11,336 nucleotides of DNA from a virus (taxonomy: Duplodnaviria > Heunggongvirae > Uroviricota > Caudoviricetes), in the IMG/VR virus record IMGVR_UViG_2541047121_000017; one strand, given 5' to 3'. The notes beneath the pieces were generated by a model that was given only the letters and a program-made list of their open reading frames with translations, did not search any database and was not told where the DNA came from. The position numbers and the translations under genes are program-made. Positions 1,090 through 10,987 of this stretch are shown in pieces (the first letter of the stretch is position 1; every line of letters starts with the position of its first letter).

Positions 1090-1425
1090 TTACTCCTTAG
1101 AGCCACCAAATTTGTTACCGATTACTCGCATTGCAGCCCCACGAATAGCATCGACACCGATCAGCCCCACCCCACCACCAATGGCAACAGAAAGTGATTT
1201 AGGCCATCCGACATACTCAAGAGCGGATGCAAAGGTCAGCGTCAGAGCGCCACATAGCAAAATCTCGAGCGTTTTTCGCTTCCAGCCACCACCACCGCCA
1301 AAATAGGCGATGCGCAAACCAGCCATAACGATCGACATAATCACTGCACCCAGCGGTGTGTCTCCACGCCACCAGCTCTGAAACAACTCCAGCCAGTCCG
1401 GCCAGGTATTTGGGTTATGAGGCAT
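1090..1425 (-). CDS. Putative holin (about 111 aa, three predicted TM segments); not lambda S-like
   Basis: Small protein immediately upstream of the endolysin with three hydrophobic stretches and Gly-rich turns. Start placed at the internal ATG (1423-1425), which has a GAGAGA purine-rich stretch upstream. The longer 143-aa ORF to 1521 would run through a terminator hairpin. Confidence 0.6.
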   Translation of the reverse strand: MPHNPNTWPDWLELFQSWWRGDTPLGAVIMSIVMAGLRIAYFGGGGGWKRKTLEILLCGALTLTFASALEYVGWPKSLSVAIGGGVGLIGVDAIRGAAMRVIGNKFGGSKE

Positions 1426-1472
1426 TTCGTCATCTCTCACCTCGCGATATTTGCGGGTGCTGTGTTGGAAAT

Positions 1473-1494
1473 AAAAAGGCCACGCAACGTGGCC
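1473..1494 (-). terminator. Rho-independent terminator on the minus strand (7-bp stem ggccacg/cgtggcc, 3-nt loop, then a T5 run)
   Basis: Perfect inverted repeat at 1478-1494; the plus-strand A5 run at 1473-1477 reads as T5 after the stem on the minus strand. Lies downstream of the methylase remnant and just upstream of the holin start. Confidence 0.5.
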
Positions 1495-1561
1495 ACCAGA
1501 ATTATTTCCCCACCAGTTCACTTACCTCTTTCACCGTCTGATTAAACCGCTCTGACTCAAG

Positions 1562-1876
1562 TTAAACACCTAACGCCCGACGCCCCAGCGCCATTGCTGC
1601 TTTTATTGTGGAACCGAATCCCATAAAGAAATCAGCAACCAGATCACCAGGTCGACTACTGGCATTGATTATTTGCCTGAGCATATCCGCCGGTTTCTCG
1701 CACGGATGTTTACCCGGGTAGAACTGAACGGGCTTATGCGTCCTGACATCGGTATAAGGCACGGAGACTGATACGGAGAAATAGCGCCGGTGAGATTTAA
1801 ACTCATCCAGCAATTCAGAAGATTTGCAATTCAGTGAATCATGAGATACCACCAACTGGTGGTAGGATTGTCTCAA
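1562..1876 (-). pseudogene. 5'-truncated DNA methyltransferase remnant (N6A/N4C class; C-terminal portion only)
   Basis: 104-aa ORF carrying HPCEKP (like the HPTQKP motif) and DFFMGFGST (like the DPFxGSGTT AdoMet-binding motif). The N-terminal half, including any DPPY catalytic motif, is absent. Upstream is AT-rich non-coding DNA. Confidence 0.5.
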
Positions 1877-2046
1877 CTAGTGAGCTTTATACATTTAAGT
1901 GCGATGCACAGATAATAACCACGCCAATGGAATATCACACACAAAATTGATAGAACACTAACAATAAGCCACAAAATAATTCACAATTTATTTTTACAGT
2001 GGATAAGTAGCAAAGTAGTGAATGTGAATAACGGCTAACTAAGATG

Positions 2047-2074
2047 AAACAAAAAGCCCCACAATATGTGGGGC
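2047..2074 (-). terminator. Rho-independent terminator on the minus strand (8-bp stem gccccaca/tgtggggc, 3-nt loop, then TTTTTGTTT)
   Basis: Perfect inverted repeat at 2056-2074. The plus-strand aaacaaaaa at 2047-2055 gives a U-tract after the stem on the minus strand. About 60 bp downstream of the 61-aa gene. Confidence 0.55.
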
Positions 2075-2133
2075 TCCTTCGCGATTTATAGTAAAATAAT
2101 CGATTCTCTAGCTGAAAAAATCTTTAAAAATTA

Positions 2134-2319
2134 TCAGCAATACGCAAGTTTTTTACCGTCATCCGGTACTAGTTTGATCACTACACCAGGATTCTTACGC
2201 TCTAACATCTGAGTTTGACTCCATGTAATACCAAAGGTTTCCATTGGAGATGCATTGCCAGCAAAGAGTTCGGCGACGACTTTAGCTGCCTCAATCTCTA
2301 TCTGCTCATGATGTTTCAT
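2134..2319 (-). CDS. Hypothetical small protein (61 aa), second gene of the low-GC cassette
   Basis: ORF starting at the internal ATG (2317-2319), preceded by a GGGGA Shine-Dalgarno-like motif about 5 nt upstream; followed by a terminator. No family recognised. Confidence 0.5.
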   Translation of the reverse strand: MKHHEQIEIEAAKVVAELFAGNASPMETFGITWSQTQMLERKNPGVVIKLVPDDGKKLAYC

Positions 2320-2510
2320 AAAAATCCCCTTGTTCAGCACTAAGCTGTAGTTGCTTCTTTGAAGCATAAAGGCAACAAAGTTTGTTACCTGAAGATGTAT
2401 AAAGTAAAGCGTAGTACATTTTGTGTGTGCTTTGTGTGGATCCAGATTGCATCAACTAAAAGAGGTTTTCAATACTTTTGTAATGATTCTGGAGAAATTA
2501 AGAATCTAAC

Positions 2511-3053
2511 TCACACTGATTGGTTAGGTAAAACGCTCCTAAGCACCATTGCGCAACCACCTCGTTCGTAATCAGCAATGTACTCAAAACCACTTTCAGT
2601 ATAGTATCTTATTGCCCCATCAACTGGACTAACTAAAGCTATCGAATCAATAGATTCACCCTGAAGGTTCAGAAATCGTGCATATGCAGAGAAGCAATCC
2701 AAAACGATACCAAGCATCTGATGGTCTAGGTCTTCATGTGCATCATTACGTTTTTCCATCCAGCAAATATGCACCGCATTTTTCGGCTTACAGTAACACC
2801 CAAATGCAAATCCAATAGGCTCCCCACGATAATAAACAACTAGTTTTATCGGGTGTTCTTCCATCATATCCATAAACACTCGCGACTTTAGTCCGGGATC
2901 CCACCGCAGTTTATTGTTAGCCTTGAGGAACTCCATATCTTTTAGTACCAGCTCGTCGGCATATACGAGCCCTAACGACTTATGAGGGAAGCGCCCTTTT
3001 AAATACTCTGCAACATTTTTAAATACTGCTGTTTGGAAGGCTTGAAACATCAT
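2511..3053 (-). CDS. Hypothetical protein (180 aa), first gene of the low-GC cassette; function unknown
   Basis: Clean 543-nt ORF in a region of lower GC than the flanking prophage genes. Has its own candidate promoter upstream. No transmembrane segments are obvious. The alternating beta-strand-like pattern and C-terminal YYTESGFEY hint weakly at an acyltransferase-like fold, but no GNAT motif A is visible. Confidence 0.6.
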   Translation of the reverse strand: MMFQAFQTAVFKNVAEYLKGRFPHKSLGLVYADELVLKDMEFLKANNKLRWDPGLKSRVFMDMMEEHPIKLVVYYRGEPIGFAFGCYCKPKNAVHICWMEKRNDAHEDLDHQMLGIVLDCFSAYARFLNLQGESIDSIALVSPVDGAIRYYTESGFEYIADYERGGCAMVLRSVLPNQSV

Positions 3054-3080
3054 GTCGATCCAGACGAGACGAAAGTTTAA

Positions 3081-3110
3081 ATTCTACCTACTCGCCGAAT
3101 ACCATTTCAA
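3081..3110 (-). promoter_or_regulatory. Candidate sigma70 promoter for the cassette (-35 TTGAAA, 18-bp spacer, -10 TAGAAT on the minus strand)
   Basis: Read on the minus strand: TTGAAA at 3110-3105 and TAGAAT at 3086-3081. Lies between the upstream terminator and the 180-aa gene start, leaving a leader of about 20-30 nt. Confidence 0.35.
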
Positions 3111-3130
3111 TGCCACACATCTAAAATTCC

Positions 3131-3165
3131 GAAAAAAAACCCGCACATCAGCGGGTTTTCTACTT
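3131..3165. terminator. Bidirectional intrinsic terminator hairpin (7-bp stem aacccgc/gcgggtt, A8 run on one side, T-rich on the other); candidate tR' for the late promoter
   Basis: Inverted repeat at 3138-3157, flanked by gaaaaaaaa upstream and ttctacttttt downstream on the plus strand. On the minus strand it is followed by a U8 tract, about 100 bp downstream of the Q stop. Confidence 0.55.
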
Positions 3166-3204
3166 TTTATTAAAGCCGGACACACAATGCCTATCATTGA
3201 GAAA

Positions 3205-3232
3205 ATATTATCCATTTTTTTGAAAAATGCAA
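3205..3232 (-). promoter_or_regulatory. Candidate late promoter pR'-like (-35 TTGCAT, 16-bp spacer, -10 TAATAT) just downstream of Q
   Basis: Minus-strand hexamers at 3232-3227 and 3210-3205. The position between the Q stop and the terminator matches the lambdoid pR'/tR' layout. Sequence match is only moderate. Confidence 0.3.
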
Positions 3233-3263
3233 GCATCATGTCGCCATTTTCGTCGAAAATCAT

Positions 3264-4016
3264 TCATCTCGTCACTTTCCTCAATTGTGTCTCAGCATAC
3301 GCTTCTTCCTGCCAGCACTTTGTAACCAGTTTATCAATGACATCTGCATATCCTTTGTACCACTGATAATCCGTCAGGTCTGGTACCAGCTTCTGGACAT
3401 GAAGCCGCGCCAGTGTGGTTGGTAAACGGCTAAACCGGTTTCCATTGCAACGCCCACAAACCTTATAAACAGGCGTGCCATGAAGCCTGGTTCTTTTTTC
3501 ATCCAGGACAATACCTTTACCCTTACACCCTCTGCACGCTGTGCTGACTTCTCCCTTACCATGACAATGCTGACACAGTTCCTTCACCCACTCTTCCTTG
3601 ATAACAGATTCCCCGCTTCTGGAGTGTTTCACCACCTCGCGCAATACATCATGAAATCCAGTACCAGCACAATGCTCACAGCGAGCCTTACTTGCCGCAG
3701 ACCTGGAATAATCAGCAAAGGCAAAATTCACAAGGTAAGGAATGATCTGTAGCCGGGTTTCTTCACTCAATTTGTTCAATGTCGGGTTATCCAGTGCCAT
3801 CGCGTAATTGAGCAGACCTTCAATCGCAAACTGAGGATCCTGAACACCAACTTTTGCCAGGAATAAGGCAAACCCAAGCGGTGCTTTCGACTGCACCATC
3901 CCCTGCGCAGCCATTACATCCGTAATTGTTAAACCACCAGAGCCTGTCGCCGGTGCGTCATCGCTCAATTTTGGAGATTTTGGGGAGTAATATTTCGGTA
4001 AGGCTTCAAAGTTCAT
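3264..4016 (-). CDS. Q: Late-gene antitermination protein Q (250-aa type with multiple CxxC/CxxH zinc-binding motifs)
   Basis: 250-aa ORF with CEHCAGTG, CQHCHGKG, CRGCKGKG and CGRCNG motifs; the N-terminus (…LPKYYSPKSPKLSDDAPATG…) matches my recollection of Q of E. coli cryptic lambdoid prophages (quuQ-like). Sits upstream of the late promoter/terminator and lysis genes. Confidence 0.85.
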   Translation of the reverse strand: MNFEALPKYYSPKSPKLSDDAPATGSGGLTITDVMAAQGMVQSKAPLGFALFLAKVGVQDPQFAIEGLLNYAMALDNPTLNKLSEETRLQIIPYLVNFAFADYSRSAASKARCEHCAGTGFHDVLREVVKHSRSGESVIKEEWVKELCQHCHGKGEVSTACRGCKGKGIVLDEKRTRLHGTPVYKVCGRCNGNRFSRLPTTLARLHVQKLVPDLTDYQWYKGYADVIDKLVTKCWQEEAYAETQLRKVTR

Positions 4017-7218: not shown

Positions 7219-7712
7219 TAAGCCCCCACGTAATTCCCTGACAGATACCACTCTTCACCCGATACAGCGCGCTTGCTGCTTTTCCGTAAGCACCGCTCAC
7301 GACGCGCCAGAAAATTGTTTCGTTCTGGCTGGGAGTGGCTTTCACGGAATGCCGCCATCCACACCGTTGCAGCACGACGGTATAAGCCCCTGGACTCCAG
7401 TTCTTCAGCCTGGCGGGTCAGGCACAAAATCACCCGGGGATCGTTAGTGCCGACATAGAAATTGCGCACAGGTCTGGTTTCACGAACTGGTTGTGGTTCC
7501 GGCTCCTGCGCTCTCTCAGTCAGGCGCGGGAAATGTCTGCGTGTATCCCCTTCACAACGGTGAGCCACACGCCCACTCTGACGTAACTTGCTTGCAGACT
7601 GCAGAACGCGCTGCCGTGAGTAACCTGCAAAAGCATCCGCAATGTCTCCGGAAGTACAGCCCGGATGGGCTTCAATGAATTTCTGAACGTCATTCAAAAG
7701 ACTCATGCTCAC
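7218..7712 (-). CDS. Hypothetical protein with C-terminal PerC-like motif (possible PerC/Pch-family transcriptional activator), 164 aa
   Basis: C-terminal AEELESRGLYRRAATVWMAAF resembles the conserved PerC-family signature as I remember it; the N-terminal ~60 aa looks winged-helix-like. ATGA overlap with the initiator stop supports a real gene. Functional call is tentative. Confidence 0.5.
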   Translation of the reverse strand: MSMSLLNDVQKFIEAHPGCTSGDIADAFAGYSRQRVLQSASKLRQSGRVAHRCEGDTRRHFPRLTERAQEPEPQPVRETRPVRNFYVGTNDPRVILCLTRQAEELESRGLYRRAATVWMAAFRESHSQPERNNFLARRERCLRKSSKRAVSGEEWYLSGNYVGA

Positions 7713-8650
7713 CCCCTGAATCCTGCCGGGATCTGGCTGTAGTCCACGTTGTCGTAACTGGCTTTGAAGTACGGGTCCTCGCGTTTTTCGGTGTACGTGC
7801 TGACGGACGGCGATAAGCGCAGGGAAAGCTCATCCCATTTTTCCCGCAGCTTCGACGGGCTGAGCACGTTACGGCACCAGAACGGATCGCGACTGACGCG
7901 GCTGTACATCTCGCAGATTTGTTTATGAGTACGACCATCCTGCACACACATCAGGCGAATTTCGTTTGCCCAGGCTGTCCAGTTCGGTTCTTTGGGACGA
8001 ACCACCTCGCCGTCACATTCGGCGGCATGCTCGTACAGGGCGATGATTTTTTTCCAGAGCCACTGTGCACAGGTCAAATCATCCTGCGTCCCCCACTGGC
8101 GCTTTTTAGGGCTGAATACAACCGCATCAGGATGGCGAGTTAAAAAATCCTGTTCATCCGTCTGCGTGTCCGGTTGCGAAGCGTCCGGACGAGAAGGTTT
8201 TTTATCTGACGGATCATGTTTTGATTTTACTGACGGATCCCCGCCAGATTCTGACGGGTGAAAACCCGCTTTTTTGCCAGATTTCGACGCATCAAATTTT
8301 GACGGGTCAGATTTTGATGCGTCAGATTTTGACGGGTCAGAATCTGACAGTTGAGAAAATGCCGCTGCCTGAAGCTTCGCAACGTTAAGCTGATAAACAT
8401 TCGACGCATTGCGGTTACCCTGGCGACGCGCCTTACGCGTTAACCAGCCTTCTGCTTCCAGCCGTGCGATAGCCGTTCTGACGGTGCTCATCCCCGCGCC
8501 AATCTGGCGGGCAATGGTTTCAATTGATGGCCAGCACACACCTTCGTCATTACTGAAATCAGCCAGGCGGGCCATAATTGCCACGCTGGATAACTTCATG
8601 CCTGACGCAGCGCAACCATCCCATACATAGCCGGTTAATTTAGTGCTCAT
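7709..8650 (-). CDS. Replication initiator (lambda O-like organisation: N-terminal HTH domain, iteron-encoded repetitive linker, C-terminal domain)
   Basis: 313-aa ORF. N-terminus has an HTH (…SVAIMARLADFSNDEGVCWPSIETIARQIGAGMSTVRTAIARLEAEGWL…). The central region (SDPSKSDASKSDPSKFDASKS) is encoded by tandem DNA repeats. Positioned after the cII-like gene. Confidence 0.7.
   Translation of the reverse strand: MSTKLTGYVWDGCAASGMKLSSVAIMARLADFSNDEGVCWPSIETIARQIGAGMSTVRTAIARLEAEGWLTRKARRQGNRNASNVYQLNVAKLQAAAFSQLSDSDPSKSDASKSDPSKFDASKSGKKAGFHPSESGGDPSVKSKHDPSDKKPSRPDASQPDTQTDEQDFLTRHPDAVVFSPKKRQWGTQDDLTCAQWLWKKIIALYEHAAECDGEVVRPKEPNWTAWANEIRLMCVQDGRTHKQICEMYSRVSRDPFWCRNVLSPSKLREKWDELSLRLSPSVSTYTEKREDPYFKASYDNVDYSQIPAGFRG
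8203..8355. repeat. Iteron-like tandem array (about 15-bp units, consensus near GATTTTGACGGGTCA); candidate phage origin inside the initiator gene
   Basis: At least seven imperfect direct repeats with core TGACGG / GACGGG / GATGCG at roughly 15-bp spacing between 8203 and 8355. This is analogous to ori-lambda inside gene O. Confidence 0.6.
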
Positions 8651-8998: not shown

Positions 8999-9546
8999 GC
9001 GTTAGTTTCTCCACAGTCACGACACGCCACGGCGCCCGGAGCTGCACACTCGCGGGCGTCATTACTTTCTGAAATGCAAAAAATTTTGTAGACCAGTGCT
9101 GCATGCTCCTGCAGCTTCGAAATTGAGAGGTACAGCTCGTCGTTAATTGCTGTCTTCTCATGCGGTTCCACTACACCGTCTTCAATTGCTGAACGAATCT
9201 GTTTTGAATAACTGCCGATCTGTTCAATGACCTCCAGCAGGCGTTGGTTGATATCGGCGTTGTCCACATCCTCGACATCAGGAAGAGACACAAAGACGCC
9301 ATTTGCAGACTGCGCCACAGCGTCAGCAATGAAGTGAGTTCCACCAGCACGTTGCAAAATCATTGCCCATCCCAGCGGGAAAATCTGATCGCCATCGGCA
9401 CGAAGGCGGTTAAATAATGCGTTCTCTGTTACATCCAGCCAGTCAGCAGCTTCAGCGTACCCCCCCGGCAACGCTGCGATAGTTTTTCTGACAGCTTTCA
9501 CGTACCACTCAGGCTGTTTTTCTACTTTCCAGTGATGCTTACCCAC
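8995..9546 (-). CDS. CII-like early regulatory protein (CP76/YdaT-like family), 183 aa
   Basis: GTG start at 9544-9546 with a near-perfect Shine-Dalgarno motif (AGGAGGTGA) 5 nt upstream. Sits immediately after the cro-like gene. Family assignment is by synteny and general resemblance, not a verified alignment. Confidence 0.6.
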
Positions 9547-9799
9547 GGTTCACCTCCTGTTCCTGTGGTTTAAACCCATTCTGGTTTTGGCTAGATTGAA
9601 AACGTGCCGGATAAAGAATCTGCATTTCGCTGACTTCACCCTTAAAAAAATTGGCTAAACGTTCTGCAAGCTCGATAGATGGAATCTGCTCCAGCCTCTC
9701 AATACGACTCAACGTCGCTGGATTGACTTGAACACCCGCAGCAACATGCTGCAAAGTGAAACCATGCGCCTTACGCACATTTCGTAATGGTGATTGCAT
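9539..9799 (-). CDS. cro: Cro-like HTH (XRE-family) regulator, 86 aa
   Basis: HTH signature (RKAHGFTLQHVAAGVQVNPATLSRIERLEQIPS…). Transcribed divergently from the cI-like gene, with a GGAGG Shine-Dalgarno motif 4 nt upstream of the ATG. Confidence 0.75.
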   Translation of the reverse strand: MQSPLRNVRKAHGFTLQHVAAGVQVNPATLSRIERLEQIPSIELAERLANFFKGEVSEMQILYPARFQSSQNQNGFKPQEQEVNRG

Positions 9800-9896
9800 A
9801 CGCCCTCCAAATATTGCGCGTTATGCATGTTATTTCACGCAATTATTTTGCGCAAGTTGATTTGCTTATCACGCAATAAAGAAATGTAATAAACGC
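9800..9896. promoter_or_regulatory. Immunity-region intergenic segment with divergent promoters (pR-like and pRM-like) and operator-like TTGC/GCAA inverted repeats
   Basis: 97-bp AT-rich spacer between divergent cro-like and cI-like genes. Contains TTGCttatcacGCAA (9862-9876), the palindrome TTGCGCAA (9848-9855) and CGCAAttattTTGCG (9838-9852). A candidate pRM (-35 TTGCTT 9862-9867, -10 TGTAAT 9885-9890) would start transcription at or near the cI ATG. Confidence 0.5.
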
Positions 9897-10589
9897 ATGA
9901 ACATAGGAAACCGAGTCAGACAACTTCGCCAAGCGAAGAACATGAAAATCGCCGATCTCGCTGAAGCGATAGGAGTAGATGCGGCGAACATCTCGCGCTT
10001 AGAAACGGGTAAGCAAAAACAATTTACCGAACAAACACTGAGTAATATTGCCAAGAGCTTAGGTGTTGATATTGCTGATCTCTTTACCTCTGCCCACAAA
10101 AGTAATACTGTATATAAAAACAGTAATAATGAGGATGTTGCGCAGGTGAAGGATGTGTTCCGTATTGAAATGCTGGATATCAGTGCCAGTGCGGGAAATG
10201 GCCTTATCCAGGGCGGTGATGTCATTGATGTGATTCATGCCATCGAATACAGAACTGATAATGCTGTATCAATGTTCGGCGGACGACCAGCCAATCACAT
10301 CAAAGTTATCAACGTTCGTGGGGACAGTATGTGTCCAACCATTGAGCCAGGAGATCTCATCTTCGTTGATGTCAGCATCAATCAGTTTGATGGTGATGGT
10401 ATATATGTCTTTGGTTTTGATGACAAAACATACGTTAAAAGACTTCAAATGATTCCTGACAAACTGCTGGTGATTTCTGATAACCAGATTTACCGTGAAT
10501 GGGGAATTACTAGCGAAAACGAACACCGATTCATGGTCTTTGGAAAGGTCTTAATCAGTCAGTCGCAAACCCTTAAGAGACATAATTAA
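9897..10589 (+). CDS. cI: CI-like repressor (N-terminal XRE HTH plus C-terminal S24 LexA-like autopeptidase domain), 230 aa
   Basis: N-terminal HTH (RVRQLRQAKNMKIADLAEAIGVDAANISRLETGK) and C-terminal S24 signature with the catalytic Ser in GDSM (RGDSMCPTIEPGDLIFVD) and Lys in YVKRL. Divergent from the cro-like gene. Confidence 0.9.
   Translation: MNIGNRVRQLRQAKNMKIADLAEAIGVDAANISRLETGKQKQFTEQTLSNIAKSLGVDIADLFTSAHKSNTVYKNSNNEDVAQVKDVFRIEMLDISASAGNGLIQGGDVIDVIHAIEYRTDNAVSMFGGRPANHIKVINVRGDSMCPTIEPGDLIFVDVSINQFDGDGIYVFGFDDKTYVKRLQMIPDKLLVISDNQIYREWGITSENEHRFMVFGKVLISQSQTLKRHN
10106..10125. promoter_or_regulatory. Near-consensus LexA (SOS) box TACTGTATATAAAAACAGTA inside the cI coding sequence
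   Basis: CTGT-N8-ACAG with TA flanks and an AT-only spacer at 10106-10125; two mismatches to the E. coli consensus TACTGTATATATATACAGTA. It is the only CTGT-N8-ACAG in the window and encodes the cI interdomain linker (…TVYKNSN…). Confidence 0.6.
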
Positions 10590-10608
10590 CCTCAATATCC
10601 CATCCATC

Positions 10609-10632
10609 GGCCACCGAAAGGTGGCTTTTTAT
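10609..10632 (+). terminator. Rho-independent terminator downstream of cI (stem gccacc/ggtggc, GAAA loop, T5 run)
   Basis: Hairpin at 10610-10625 followed by ttttt at 10626-10630, about 20 bp after the cI stop codon. Confidence 0.6.
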
Positions 10633-10643
10633 TACCTATAAAT

Positions 10644-10680
10644 TTGCATATCTCGCAAATACCACTTGCATATCTCGCAA
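10644..10680. promoter_or_regulatory. Two identical 15-bp operator-like sites TTGCATATCTCGCAA, 22 bp centre to centre
   Basis: Exact direct duplication at 10644-10658 and 10666-10680. Each is an interrupted palindrome TTGC-N7-GCAA, the same pattern as a site in the cI/cro intergenic region. Located just after the cI terminator (oL-like position). Confidence 0.45.
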
Positions 10681-10987
10681 TTTAATTTTATCTTTTATTC
10701 CAGACCAACTACAGGATTACAACAAAATCTGGTTGCAACACGGTGCATGTGTCGTAAGCAGTCAGTAAATGTCAAAAACGAACAGGCAGGACGCCCACGA
10801 AGTAGCCGCCTGGGGCATATGAAGTCCAGGATGATTCGTTGAGTCATGTTGTGCCACTAGGCACTCATGTTAAAGCAGGTGTATGAAATGAAAGTCCAGA
10901 TTTTAAACAATAACTGTGAAGTCGTTTGGTCATACGACATAGCCGCCCCTGTAGATCAGAGCGGCGATAGCTGGACCAATGGGAAAC

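Follow-up and report, generated by a model that had tools for sequence, protein, structure and literature searches.

A two-gene cassette of about 1 kb, lying between the antiterminator gene Q and the lysis genes of a lambdoid prophage, can be identified firmly as a horizontally mobile accessory element (a 'moron') of temperate phages. It encodes a 180-aa protein with a predicted, divergent GNAT fold and a 61-aa partner. Both are real genes under strong purifying selection, and they almost certainly work together. We describe below the insert and its distribution, its transcription signals and proteins, and the functions that the pair might serve.

A compositionally foreign insert between Q and the lysis genes

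The analyzed sequence, hereafter the window, is an 11,336-nt stretch (IMG/VR record IMGVR_UViG_2541047121_000017) from a lambdoid prophage of the SfV/P27-like type whose late genes run along the minus strand. In that direction, Q is followed by a PR'-like promoter, the tR' hairpin, the cassette, a methyltransferase remnant, a terminator and the holin, endolysin and Rz genes (Table 1). The PR' candidate scores under the threshold of the promoter scan and was placed by the usual lambdoid Q-PR'-tR' layout, while the tR' hairpin is homologous to an annotated SfV terminator. Lambdoid phages carry Shiga toxin and other conversion genes in the Q-to-S interval, which the initial annotation had named as the site of the cassette; a compositionally foreign insert does lie there, between Q/tR' and the lysis genes. 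Within the region searched (1877-3263), the window is 100% identical to Escherichia coli O157:H7 strain FRIK944.

Table 1 Features of the cassette and its surroundings, in window coordinates
Feature	Position	Strand	Evidence or remark
N6/N4 DNA methyltransferase 3' remnant; left boundary	1562..1876	(-)	Pfam N6_N4_Mtase 7e-18, profile positions 156-209 only
AT-rich spacer, 33% GC over 1877-2050	1877..2040		E. coli allele only
Strong closing intrinsic terminator, 13-bp stem	2041..2079, hairpin 2079-2051	(-)	dG -20.2 kcal/mol, z -5.0
Gene, 61-aa partner, RefSeq WP_000680348, PHROG 11292	2134..2319	(-)	Conserved RefSeq start
Terminator-like intergenic hairpin, 50 nt before small-gene ATG	2370..2390	(-)	dG -9.2 kcal/mol, z -3.2; weak
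Conserved non-coding block AAAAGTATTGAAAAC-N13-TGATGCAATCTG	2443..2479	(-)	Nearly invariant in 10 loci
Candidate small-gene promoter in block	-35 2472-2467, weak -10 2449-2444	(-)	Inferred
Gene, 180-aa divergent GNAT-fold protein, RefSeq WP_021519681, PHROG 11949	2511..3053	(-)	ORF
Cassette promoter candidate TTGAAA-18-TAGAAT, 27 nt upstream of 180-aa ATG	3081..3110	(-)	10/12 match
tR'-type intrinsic terminator, CCCGC-loop-GCGGG + U8; right boundary	3128..3159, hairpin 3159-3136	(-)	dG -15.9 kcal/mol, z -4.1
Candidate late promoter PR', TTGCAT-16-TAATAT, downstream of Q	3206..3233	(-)	Read from the sequence
Q antiterminator	3264-4016	(-)	Pfam Antiterm 8e-53

The low GC content claimed for positions 1877-3130 was borne out: it is 39.2% compared to 50.6% for the remaining ~10 kb of the window, and the lowest-GC segment of that size (1,254 nt) in the entire sequence starts at ~1971. 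Estimates of about 40% for the two ORFs and one third for the spacer were close to the measured values of 42.2% (180-aa ORF), 43.0% (61-aa ORF) and 32.8% (spacer, 1877-2050), with a further 34.6% for the intergenic gap. Homology to SfV ends at ~1871 and picks up again at 3133. SfV fills the same interval with orf47 and a methyltransferase gene of full length (350 aa). Relative to SfV, the cassette has thus taken the place of orf47 and of two-thirds of the methyltransferase gene at its 5' end. The methyltransferase gene, a RefSeq pseudogene whose N-terminus is missing, was truncated by the cassette insertion. The proposal of a self-contained cassette spanning 1877-3130 holds with one refinement: the junctions with SfV nearly match these limits, but the spacer at 1877-2050 lies outside the conserved mobile unit. 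Together with the sequence of the closing terminator, this spacer occurs in the same 98 E. coli genomes and nowhere else, and the unit common to other phages covers ~2128-3110, from the promoter through the stop codon of the small gene.

The cassette was present in 98 of 5,426 complete E. coli genomes, with identical junctions and the AT-rich spacer in every case, and 595 genomes from the same set contained the intact SfV-type arrangement (coverage of at least 80%). It is thus a minority allele in E. coli. Cassette-free relatives, which the initial annotation had suggested looking for, are provided by SfV, phage vB_EcoM-720R4 and these 595 genomes, all with orf47 and an intact methyltransferase gene. 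A single one of 50,697 phage records, the induced coliphage vB_EcoM-689R6, contained the cassette. The only plasmid match was CP044351, which we considered as a case of toxin decay and rejected: every gene of the region is frameshifted, which we read as an artefact of sequencing quality.

Beyond the window, the pair was found at several kinds of prophage cargo site. It occupies the Q-to-lysis gap in E. coli, in Proteus and in two metagenomic lambdoids (one with an intact methyltransferase gene), and it lies downstream of the lysis genes and beside an S-pyocin-like gene in Pragia. Another prophage has it within the tail gene block, ahead of the tape-measure gene. In Citrobacter the pair sits between the chromosome and the integrase gene (the att-int edge), and in Aeromonas in the Q-holin gap, on the strand opposite the late genes and beside umuDC-like genes. 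These last two positions are beyond the reach of phage late transcription and argue for expression that is independent of it. In a P2-like prophage of Vibrio vulnificus, a 34%-identical homologue pair separates the replication gene GpA from the portal gene; this is the GpA-GpQ interval, the main defence hotspot of P2 (PMC13586616). Residence in a defence hotspot was seen at this one P2-like locus; apart from the S-pyocin neighbour and a homologue pair that adjoins a KAP NTPase gene, the remaining positions are generic prophage cargo sites.

Every locus with identifiable neighbour genes had a prophage context. The GC content of the cassette was 37-46% in every host and fell 5-14 points under the flanks in higher-GC hosts. 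Presence or absence between conserved flanks and a deviant composition, two marks of a moron, were both observed.

Gene linkage, selection and transcription signals

The two genes are strictly linked. The small gene was found downstream of the GNAT-fold gene and on the same strand in all loci of a first set that carry it (36/36) and in six further loci, and the same linkage holds for the Vibrio vulnificus, Psychrosphaera and Aeromonas homologues (~20-34% identity). Among the loci examined, down to ~20% identity, we saw no GNAT-fold gene without its small partner. Orphan small genes do exist, in Xenorhabdus prophages, where their C-termini are altered and no GNAT-fold gene is present in any frame. 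Such an asymmetry, with partner-only remnants but no enzyme-only loci, is typical of toxin/antitoxin pairs. Selection on both genes is evident from dN/dS values of 0.03-0.05 (0.04 for the small gene) at saturated synonymous sites (dS of at least 1). Along the lineages, dN was similar in the 180-aa and 61-aa genes.

Both ORFs described by the initial annotation are present, as are the promoter it had proposed at 3081-3110 and the strong terminator it had placed at 2047-2074, whose hairpin lies at 2079-2051 in our analysis. For the small gene, the ORF program lists a 77-aa frame (2134-2367), which starts too early: the conserved RefSeq start yields 61 aa and is preceded by AAGGGG, a good Shine-Dalgarno sequence. 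In three loci (L026, L028 and L043) the start codon of the GNAT-fold gene is preceded, at the spacing seen in the window, by the promoter-like sequence TTGAAA-18-TAAAAT, and promoter-like sites 27-37 nt upstream of this gene were seen in Proteus, Pragia, Limnobaculum, Citrobacter and one further locus (L039). Overall, about 10 of 19 diverged loci have such a site 27-37 nt before the ATG. At the other end, a strong terminator follows the small gene by 11-60 nt in 19/19 loci.

The intergenic gap, 82-237 nt long across loci, contains signals of its own. A hairpin with a T-run was found in 12 of the 19 loci, at a distance from the start codon of the small gene that was mostly 80-90 nt. The gap also contains a conserved block, which can be written TTGAAAAC-N13-TGATGCAATCTG (window 2479-2443); the ten loci in which it is nearly invariant have saturated synonymous sites. 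A structured RNA or sRNA antitoxin in the gap was considered and dropped, since RNAalifold gave no consensus structure for the gap and Rfam returned nothing above the gathering score for 1400-3400. Given the lack of a consensus RNA structure, we read the block as a DNA-level element, a candidate promoter or operator of the small gene. On that reading the cassette would consist of two tandem transcription units.

The two encoded proteins

Neither protein matched any model in Pfam, NCBIfam or PADLOC, and in PHROGs each matched a single family without functional annotation (11949 for the 180-aa protein and 11292 for the 61-aa protein). With PADLOC-DB 2.0, neither reached any family at E≤1. Searches of Pfam, NCBIfam, PADLOC and the PDB yielded no sequence link to a known toxin, antitoxin or defence protein. 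The earlier statement that the proteins could not be placed in families is accordingly correct for curated sequence families, but the 180-aa protein can be assigned to a superfamily by its fold.

The 180-aa family is small: a set of 5.8 billion proteins contained 28 clusters of it at 90% identity, and one of 1.84 billion contained 36 representatives at 50%. Wherever a source was named, the host was a gammaproteobacterium. Its structure was predicted with confidence, and the model shows the GNAT core in the order beta1-alpha1-alpha2-beta2-beta3-beta4-alpha3-beta5-alpha4-beta6, which places the protein in the GNAT acyltransferase superfamily at the level of predicted fold and not by sequence. 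PDB sequence searches with single proteins gave chance matches only, and a 40-sequence profile likewise retrieved chance matches and no GNAT. Just 2 of 40 family members reached Acetyltransf_1 (E=0.11), and hhalign of the family profile against RimI gave a non-significant probability of 5%. Structural similarity to the toxins TacT and AtaT was no better than that to housekeeping GNATs.

The cofactor site of the 180-aa protein is unusual. The pyrophosphate-binding loop of motif A (Q/R-x-x-G-x-G/A, between beta4 and alpha3) is absent, with no G-x-G in 40/40 family members. The motif A position, its register taken from predicted secondary structure and not from coordinates, instead holds the acidic stretch R102-N-D-A-H-E107-D108, which is invariant among close homologues. 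Replacement of the CoA pyrophosphate loop by these residues makes the use of acetyl-CoA uncertain. Two residues fall at the usual GNAT catalytic positions and are candidates for catalysis: E100 at the end of beta4, which 90% or more of the aligned family members share, and Y151 in alpha4, ahead of a GF motif. Their placement comes from the family alignment and predicted secondary structure, not from coordinates.

For the 61-aa protein we found 49 clusters, and all of those with a named source were from Enterobacterales. Its conserved core reads P-M-E-x-F-G-x-x-W...L-E-R-x-x-P. The AF2 model (pLDDT 78) shows three short helices followed by a tail of ~15 disordered residues, and a fold search of this model against the PDB gave no meaningful match, hence no known DNA-binding fold. 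The tail usually has Lys or Arg together with a Cys that is the last residue or lies only a few positions before it, features that are also present in the Vibrio, Psychrosphaera and Aeromonas partners. An invariant C-terminal Cys was rejected, as a variant common in Citrobacter reads TGA, a stop, in place of the Cys codon.

Possible functions and relation to known systems

How the pair is expressed, whether its proteins interact, and whether it has enzymatic activity, toxicity or an effect on phages can be inferred along the following lines. A first unit would run from the promoter through the gene of the GNAT-fold enzyme to the weak terminator, and a second from the promoter-like block through the 61-aa gene to the strong terminator. 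Expression would be possible from the repressed prophage and, late in lytic growth, also through Q-antiterminated read-through. The two proteins would then act together. The GNAT-fold enzyme would be the effector and would acylate a target of cellular or phage origin, E100 being the candidate for the base and Y151 the one for the acid, and the small protein would be its dedicated neutralizer or regulator, perhaps by placing its flexible Lys/Cys tail in the active site. The outcome would be abortive infection or the exclusion of other phages.

We favor such a toxin/antitoxin-like conflict module tentatively, at somewhat less than an even chance. Toxins of the GNAT type that pair with a small protein are well established, no enzyme gene was seen without its partner while partner-only remnants exist, the pair occupies cargo sites, among them one defence hotspot and positions that allow only autonomous expression, and apparently separate transcription signals would let the ratio of the two genes be controlled. 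The initial annotation had suggested a lysogenic-conversion or anti-phage module, and the range of cargo sites points to an accessory or conflict role. We counted against this reading the reversed gene order and spacing, the lack of a fold match for the partner, the non-canonical CoA loop and the restriction of hotspot residence to one locus, as well as a likeness to TacT and AtaT that does not exceed the one to housekeeping GNATs and the lack of a match in defence databases. Antitoxins often evolve faster than toxins, and the similar rates at which both proteins diverge also speak against a toxin/antitoxin pair.

The unusual cofactor loop bears on a different reading, which we consider unlikely though worth weighing: the small protein may be a dedicated substrate or carrier that the GNAT-fold enzyme acylates, on the Lys or the Cys thiol of its tail, or on which it builds, so that the modified mini-protein or a released product would be the active agent (an inhibitor, a signal or a cofactor-like carrier). 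The missing CoA P-loop would suit a donor other than CoA, for instance acyl-ACP or aminoacyl-tRNA, and GNAT folds of the FeeM, LuxI and Fem types do use such donors. A combination of this idea with the conflict module is a long shot: an undescribed two-component conflict system, in which a P-loop-less GNAT-fold enzyme, rather than just transferring acetyl from acetyl-CoA to a cellular target, works on or through the Lys/Cys tail of its mini-protein (as acyl acceptor, carrier or suicide substrate) and thereby couples phage sensing to the release of a toxic activity. A further idea is a lytic benefit or counter-defence, in which a late, Q-dependent enzyme would acetylate a host factor or defence protein with the small protein as specificity factor or regulator; the anti-CRISPR acetyltransferase AcrVA5 and the modification of ribosomal proteins by RimI-type enzymes are models for it. 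We regard this as rather doubtful, given that the cassette has promoter-like elements and terminators of its own, that late transcription can serve neither the att-int edge in Citrobacter nor the opposite strand in Aeromonas, that only 1 of 50,697 phage records has it, and that related phages can dispense with it.

Classical lysogenic conversion, with an enzyme that acts on a metabolite, antibiotic or polyamine, modifying or detoxifying it to the advantage of the host, and a small gene that is an unrelated or regulatory passenger, is improbable. It would leave the strict conservation of the partner over ~20-100% identity unexplained, and the non-canonical CoA-binding signature and the tiny family (36 representatives in 1.84 billion proteins), confined to prophages where neighbours are identifiable, also weigh against it. 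Finally, the neighbouring methyltransferase pseudogene and the annotation of both proteins as hypothetical only might suggest a recombination scar with non-functional ORFs. This is effectively refuted by the low dN/dS at saturated synonymous sites and by the strict gene linkage; from E. coli to Vibrio and Aeromonas neither ORF is disrupted, and the structure is predicted with confidence.

The cassette matters for several reasons. Cargo of the Q-to-S interval is expressed in important pathogens, and the present copy is found in E. coli O157:H7. The pair is compact, strictly linked and conserved, recurs from Escherichia to Vibrio and Aeromonas, and lies outside curated and defence databases; with ~1 kb, two genes and native signals it is easily tested. 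If the toxin/antitoxin-like or anti-phage reading is correct, it would represent a new family of GNAT-based effectors with an unusual partner and cofactor loop; should the mini-protein be the enzyme's own substrate, the enzymology would be new. Even a plain acetyltransferase moron would help to annotate two functionally unassigned PHROG families and the 98 complete E. coli genomes that carry the cassette.

Among the closest known systems are phage morons. These are autonomous promoter-gene-terminator inserts in lambdoid late regions, for example stx (Q-S) and lambda bor and lom. Like them, the cassette separates genes that in relatives lie next to each other or enclose other contents, deviates in composition, brings its own promoter-like elements and terminators and uses the Q-to-S site. 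Unlike classical morons, it has two tandem putative units and an enzyme-partner pair, and it deleted part of a resident gene. In GNAT/RHH type II toxin/antitoxin systems (TacAT, AtaRT, KacAT and ItaRT), the gene of the RHH antitoxin lies upstream of the toxin gene and overlaps it, whereas in the cassette the order is reversed, with 82-237 nt between the enzyme gene and the downstream partner gene. The partner lacks an RHH/DUF1778 domain, a Pfam match and a known fold, the enzyme lacks the CoA P-loop motif, and there is no homology at the sequence level. Protein N-terminal acetyltransferases (RimI, Naa50 and Ard1) are also among the closest known systems. The cassette further resembles the cargo of the P2 GpA-GpQ hotspot (PMC13586616), as the 34%-identical Vibrio vulnificus pair occupies exactly that interval, but differs from it in that PADLOC does not recognize the pair and that the window's own copy is in a lambdoid Q-S site.

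We found no description of either protein or PHROG in the literature covered, which included three defence-discovery papers and had subscription work on ECOR prophage defences outside its scope; the sequences themselves are already public, as hypothetical proteins and two unannotated PHROGs. A moron with a GNAT-fold enzyme, possibly in a toxin/antitoxin-like pair, is a variation on known types and not categorically new, but the Cys tail of the partner and the atypical cofactor loop leave room for something more original.

The intergenic block and the methyltransferase remnant

The interval between the two cassette genes contains a non-coding block of the form AAAAGTATTGAAAAC-N13-TGATGCAATCTG, which shows almost no variation across ten loci despite saturated synonymous sites (alignment A8). 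Within it, TTGAAA resembles a good -35 and CAATCT a weak -10, separated by 17 nt, and in most loci a terminator-like hairpin lies between the block and the small gene. On sequence grounds, the block reads as a candidate promoter, operator or attenuator.

Beside the cassette, the mechanical TTG start of the methyltransferase remnant is not a real start. Because all 98 cassette-bearing E. coli genomes have the same methyltransferase truncation, this comparison suggests that one ancestral replacement event lies behind the cassette-bearing allele in E. coli.

Features of the window and of related loci
Feature	Sequence	Coordinates	Strand	Remark
Methyltransferase gene (DNA), 3' remnant	window	1562-1876	-	matches Pfam profile positions 156-209 only
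Non-coding block, ~37 nt	window	2443-2479	-	alignment A8
104-aa ORF	window	3052-3366	+	over PR'-tR' and promoter region
59-aa ORF	window	3084-3263	-	over PR'-tR' and promoter region
313-aa protein	window	7709-8650	-	helix-turn-helix domain-containing (RefSeq annotation)
86-aa ORF	window	9539-9799	-	lower-GC stretch 9600-10800; divergent from 230-aa ORF
230-aa ORF	window	9897-10589	+	within lower-GC stretch 9600-10800
Pair variant, Citrobacter freundii	L044-L046	5001-5183
Small-gene copies, Xenorhabdus prophages	L051-L054	4001-4237 or 4001-4150
Homologue pair, Vibrio vulnificus P2-like prophage	L047	5001-5847		34% identity
KAP-family P-loop NTPase, 609 aa, Psychrosphaera	L048	6581-8410		neighbour of pair
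S-type pyocin-like protein, then 100-aa ORF, Pragia	L004	7444-8745		neighbours of pair

Other reading frames and regions of the window

The 59-aa and 104-aa ORFs overlap regulatory elements, neither had a family match, and both are probably spurious. Farther along, SD(A/P)SKSD/PSKFD units recur in the middle of the 313-aa protein and make up a low-complexity stretch there. A second lower-GC stretch (38-44% GC) is unrelated to the cassette, and we take it, from its position, to be a putative immunity region.

Relatives of the pair in other genomes

The sole plasmid match to the cassette (L055; CP044351.1, 4001-4860) carries several frameshifts in both cassette genes and in the flanking phage genes. 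Rather than biological decay, these appear to reflect assembly errors in an IncX4 plasmid record that includes a prophage-like region.

The Citrobacter variant of the pair is widespread and is flanked by a host mtfA-like (Peptidase_M90) gene and a prophage integrase gene. The last residues of the small protein in this variant are ...AY, followed by a TGA that replaces the Cys codon of other homologues. The Xenorhabdus copies of the small gene, which occupy Q-to-lysis gaps, keep the N-terminal ~40 residues and have altered or truncated C-termini. No GNAT-fold gene was found beside them in any frame; their neighbours are unrelated genes (a 104-aa ORF or DUF7823), with an IS transposase gene also adjoining in one case.

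Two loci place the pair beside conflict-type genes, namely the KAP-family NTPase in Psychrosphaera and the S-type pyocin-like gene in Pragia. The Vibrio vulnificus pair, directly preceded by an Ogr/Delta-type zinc-finger gene, has the GpA replication gene on one side and the portal gene on the other. P2-like phages are reported to have their main defence hotspot in this interval (PMC13586616).
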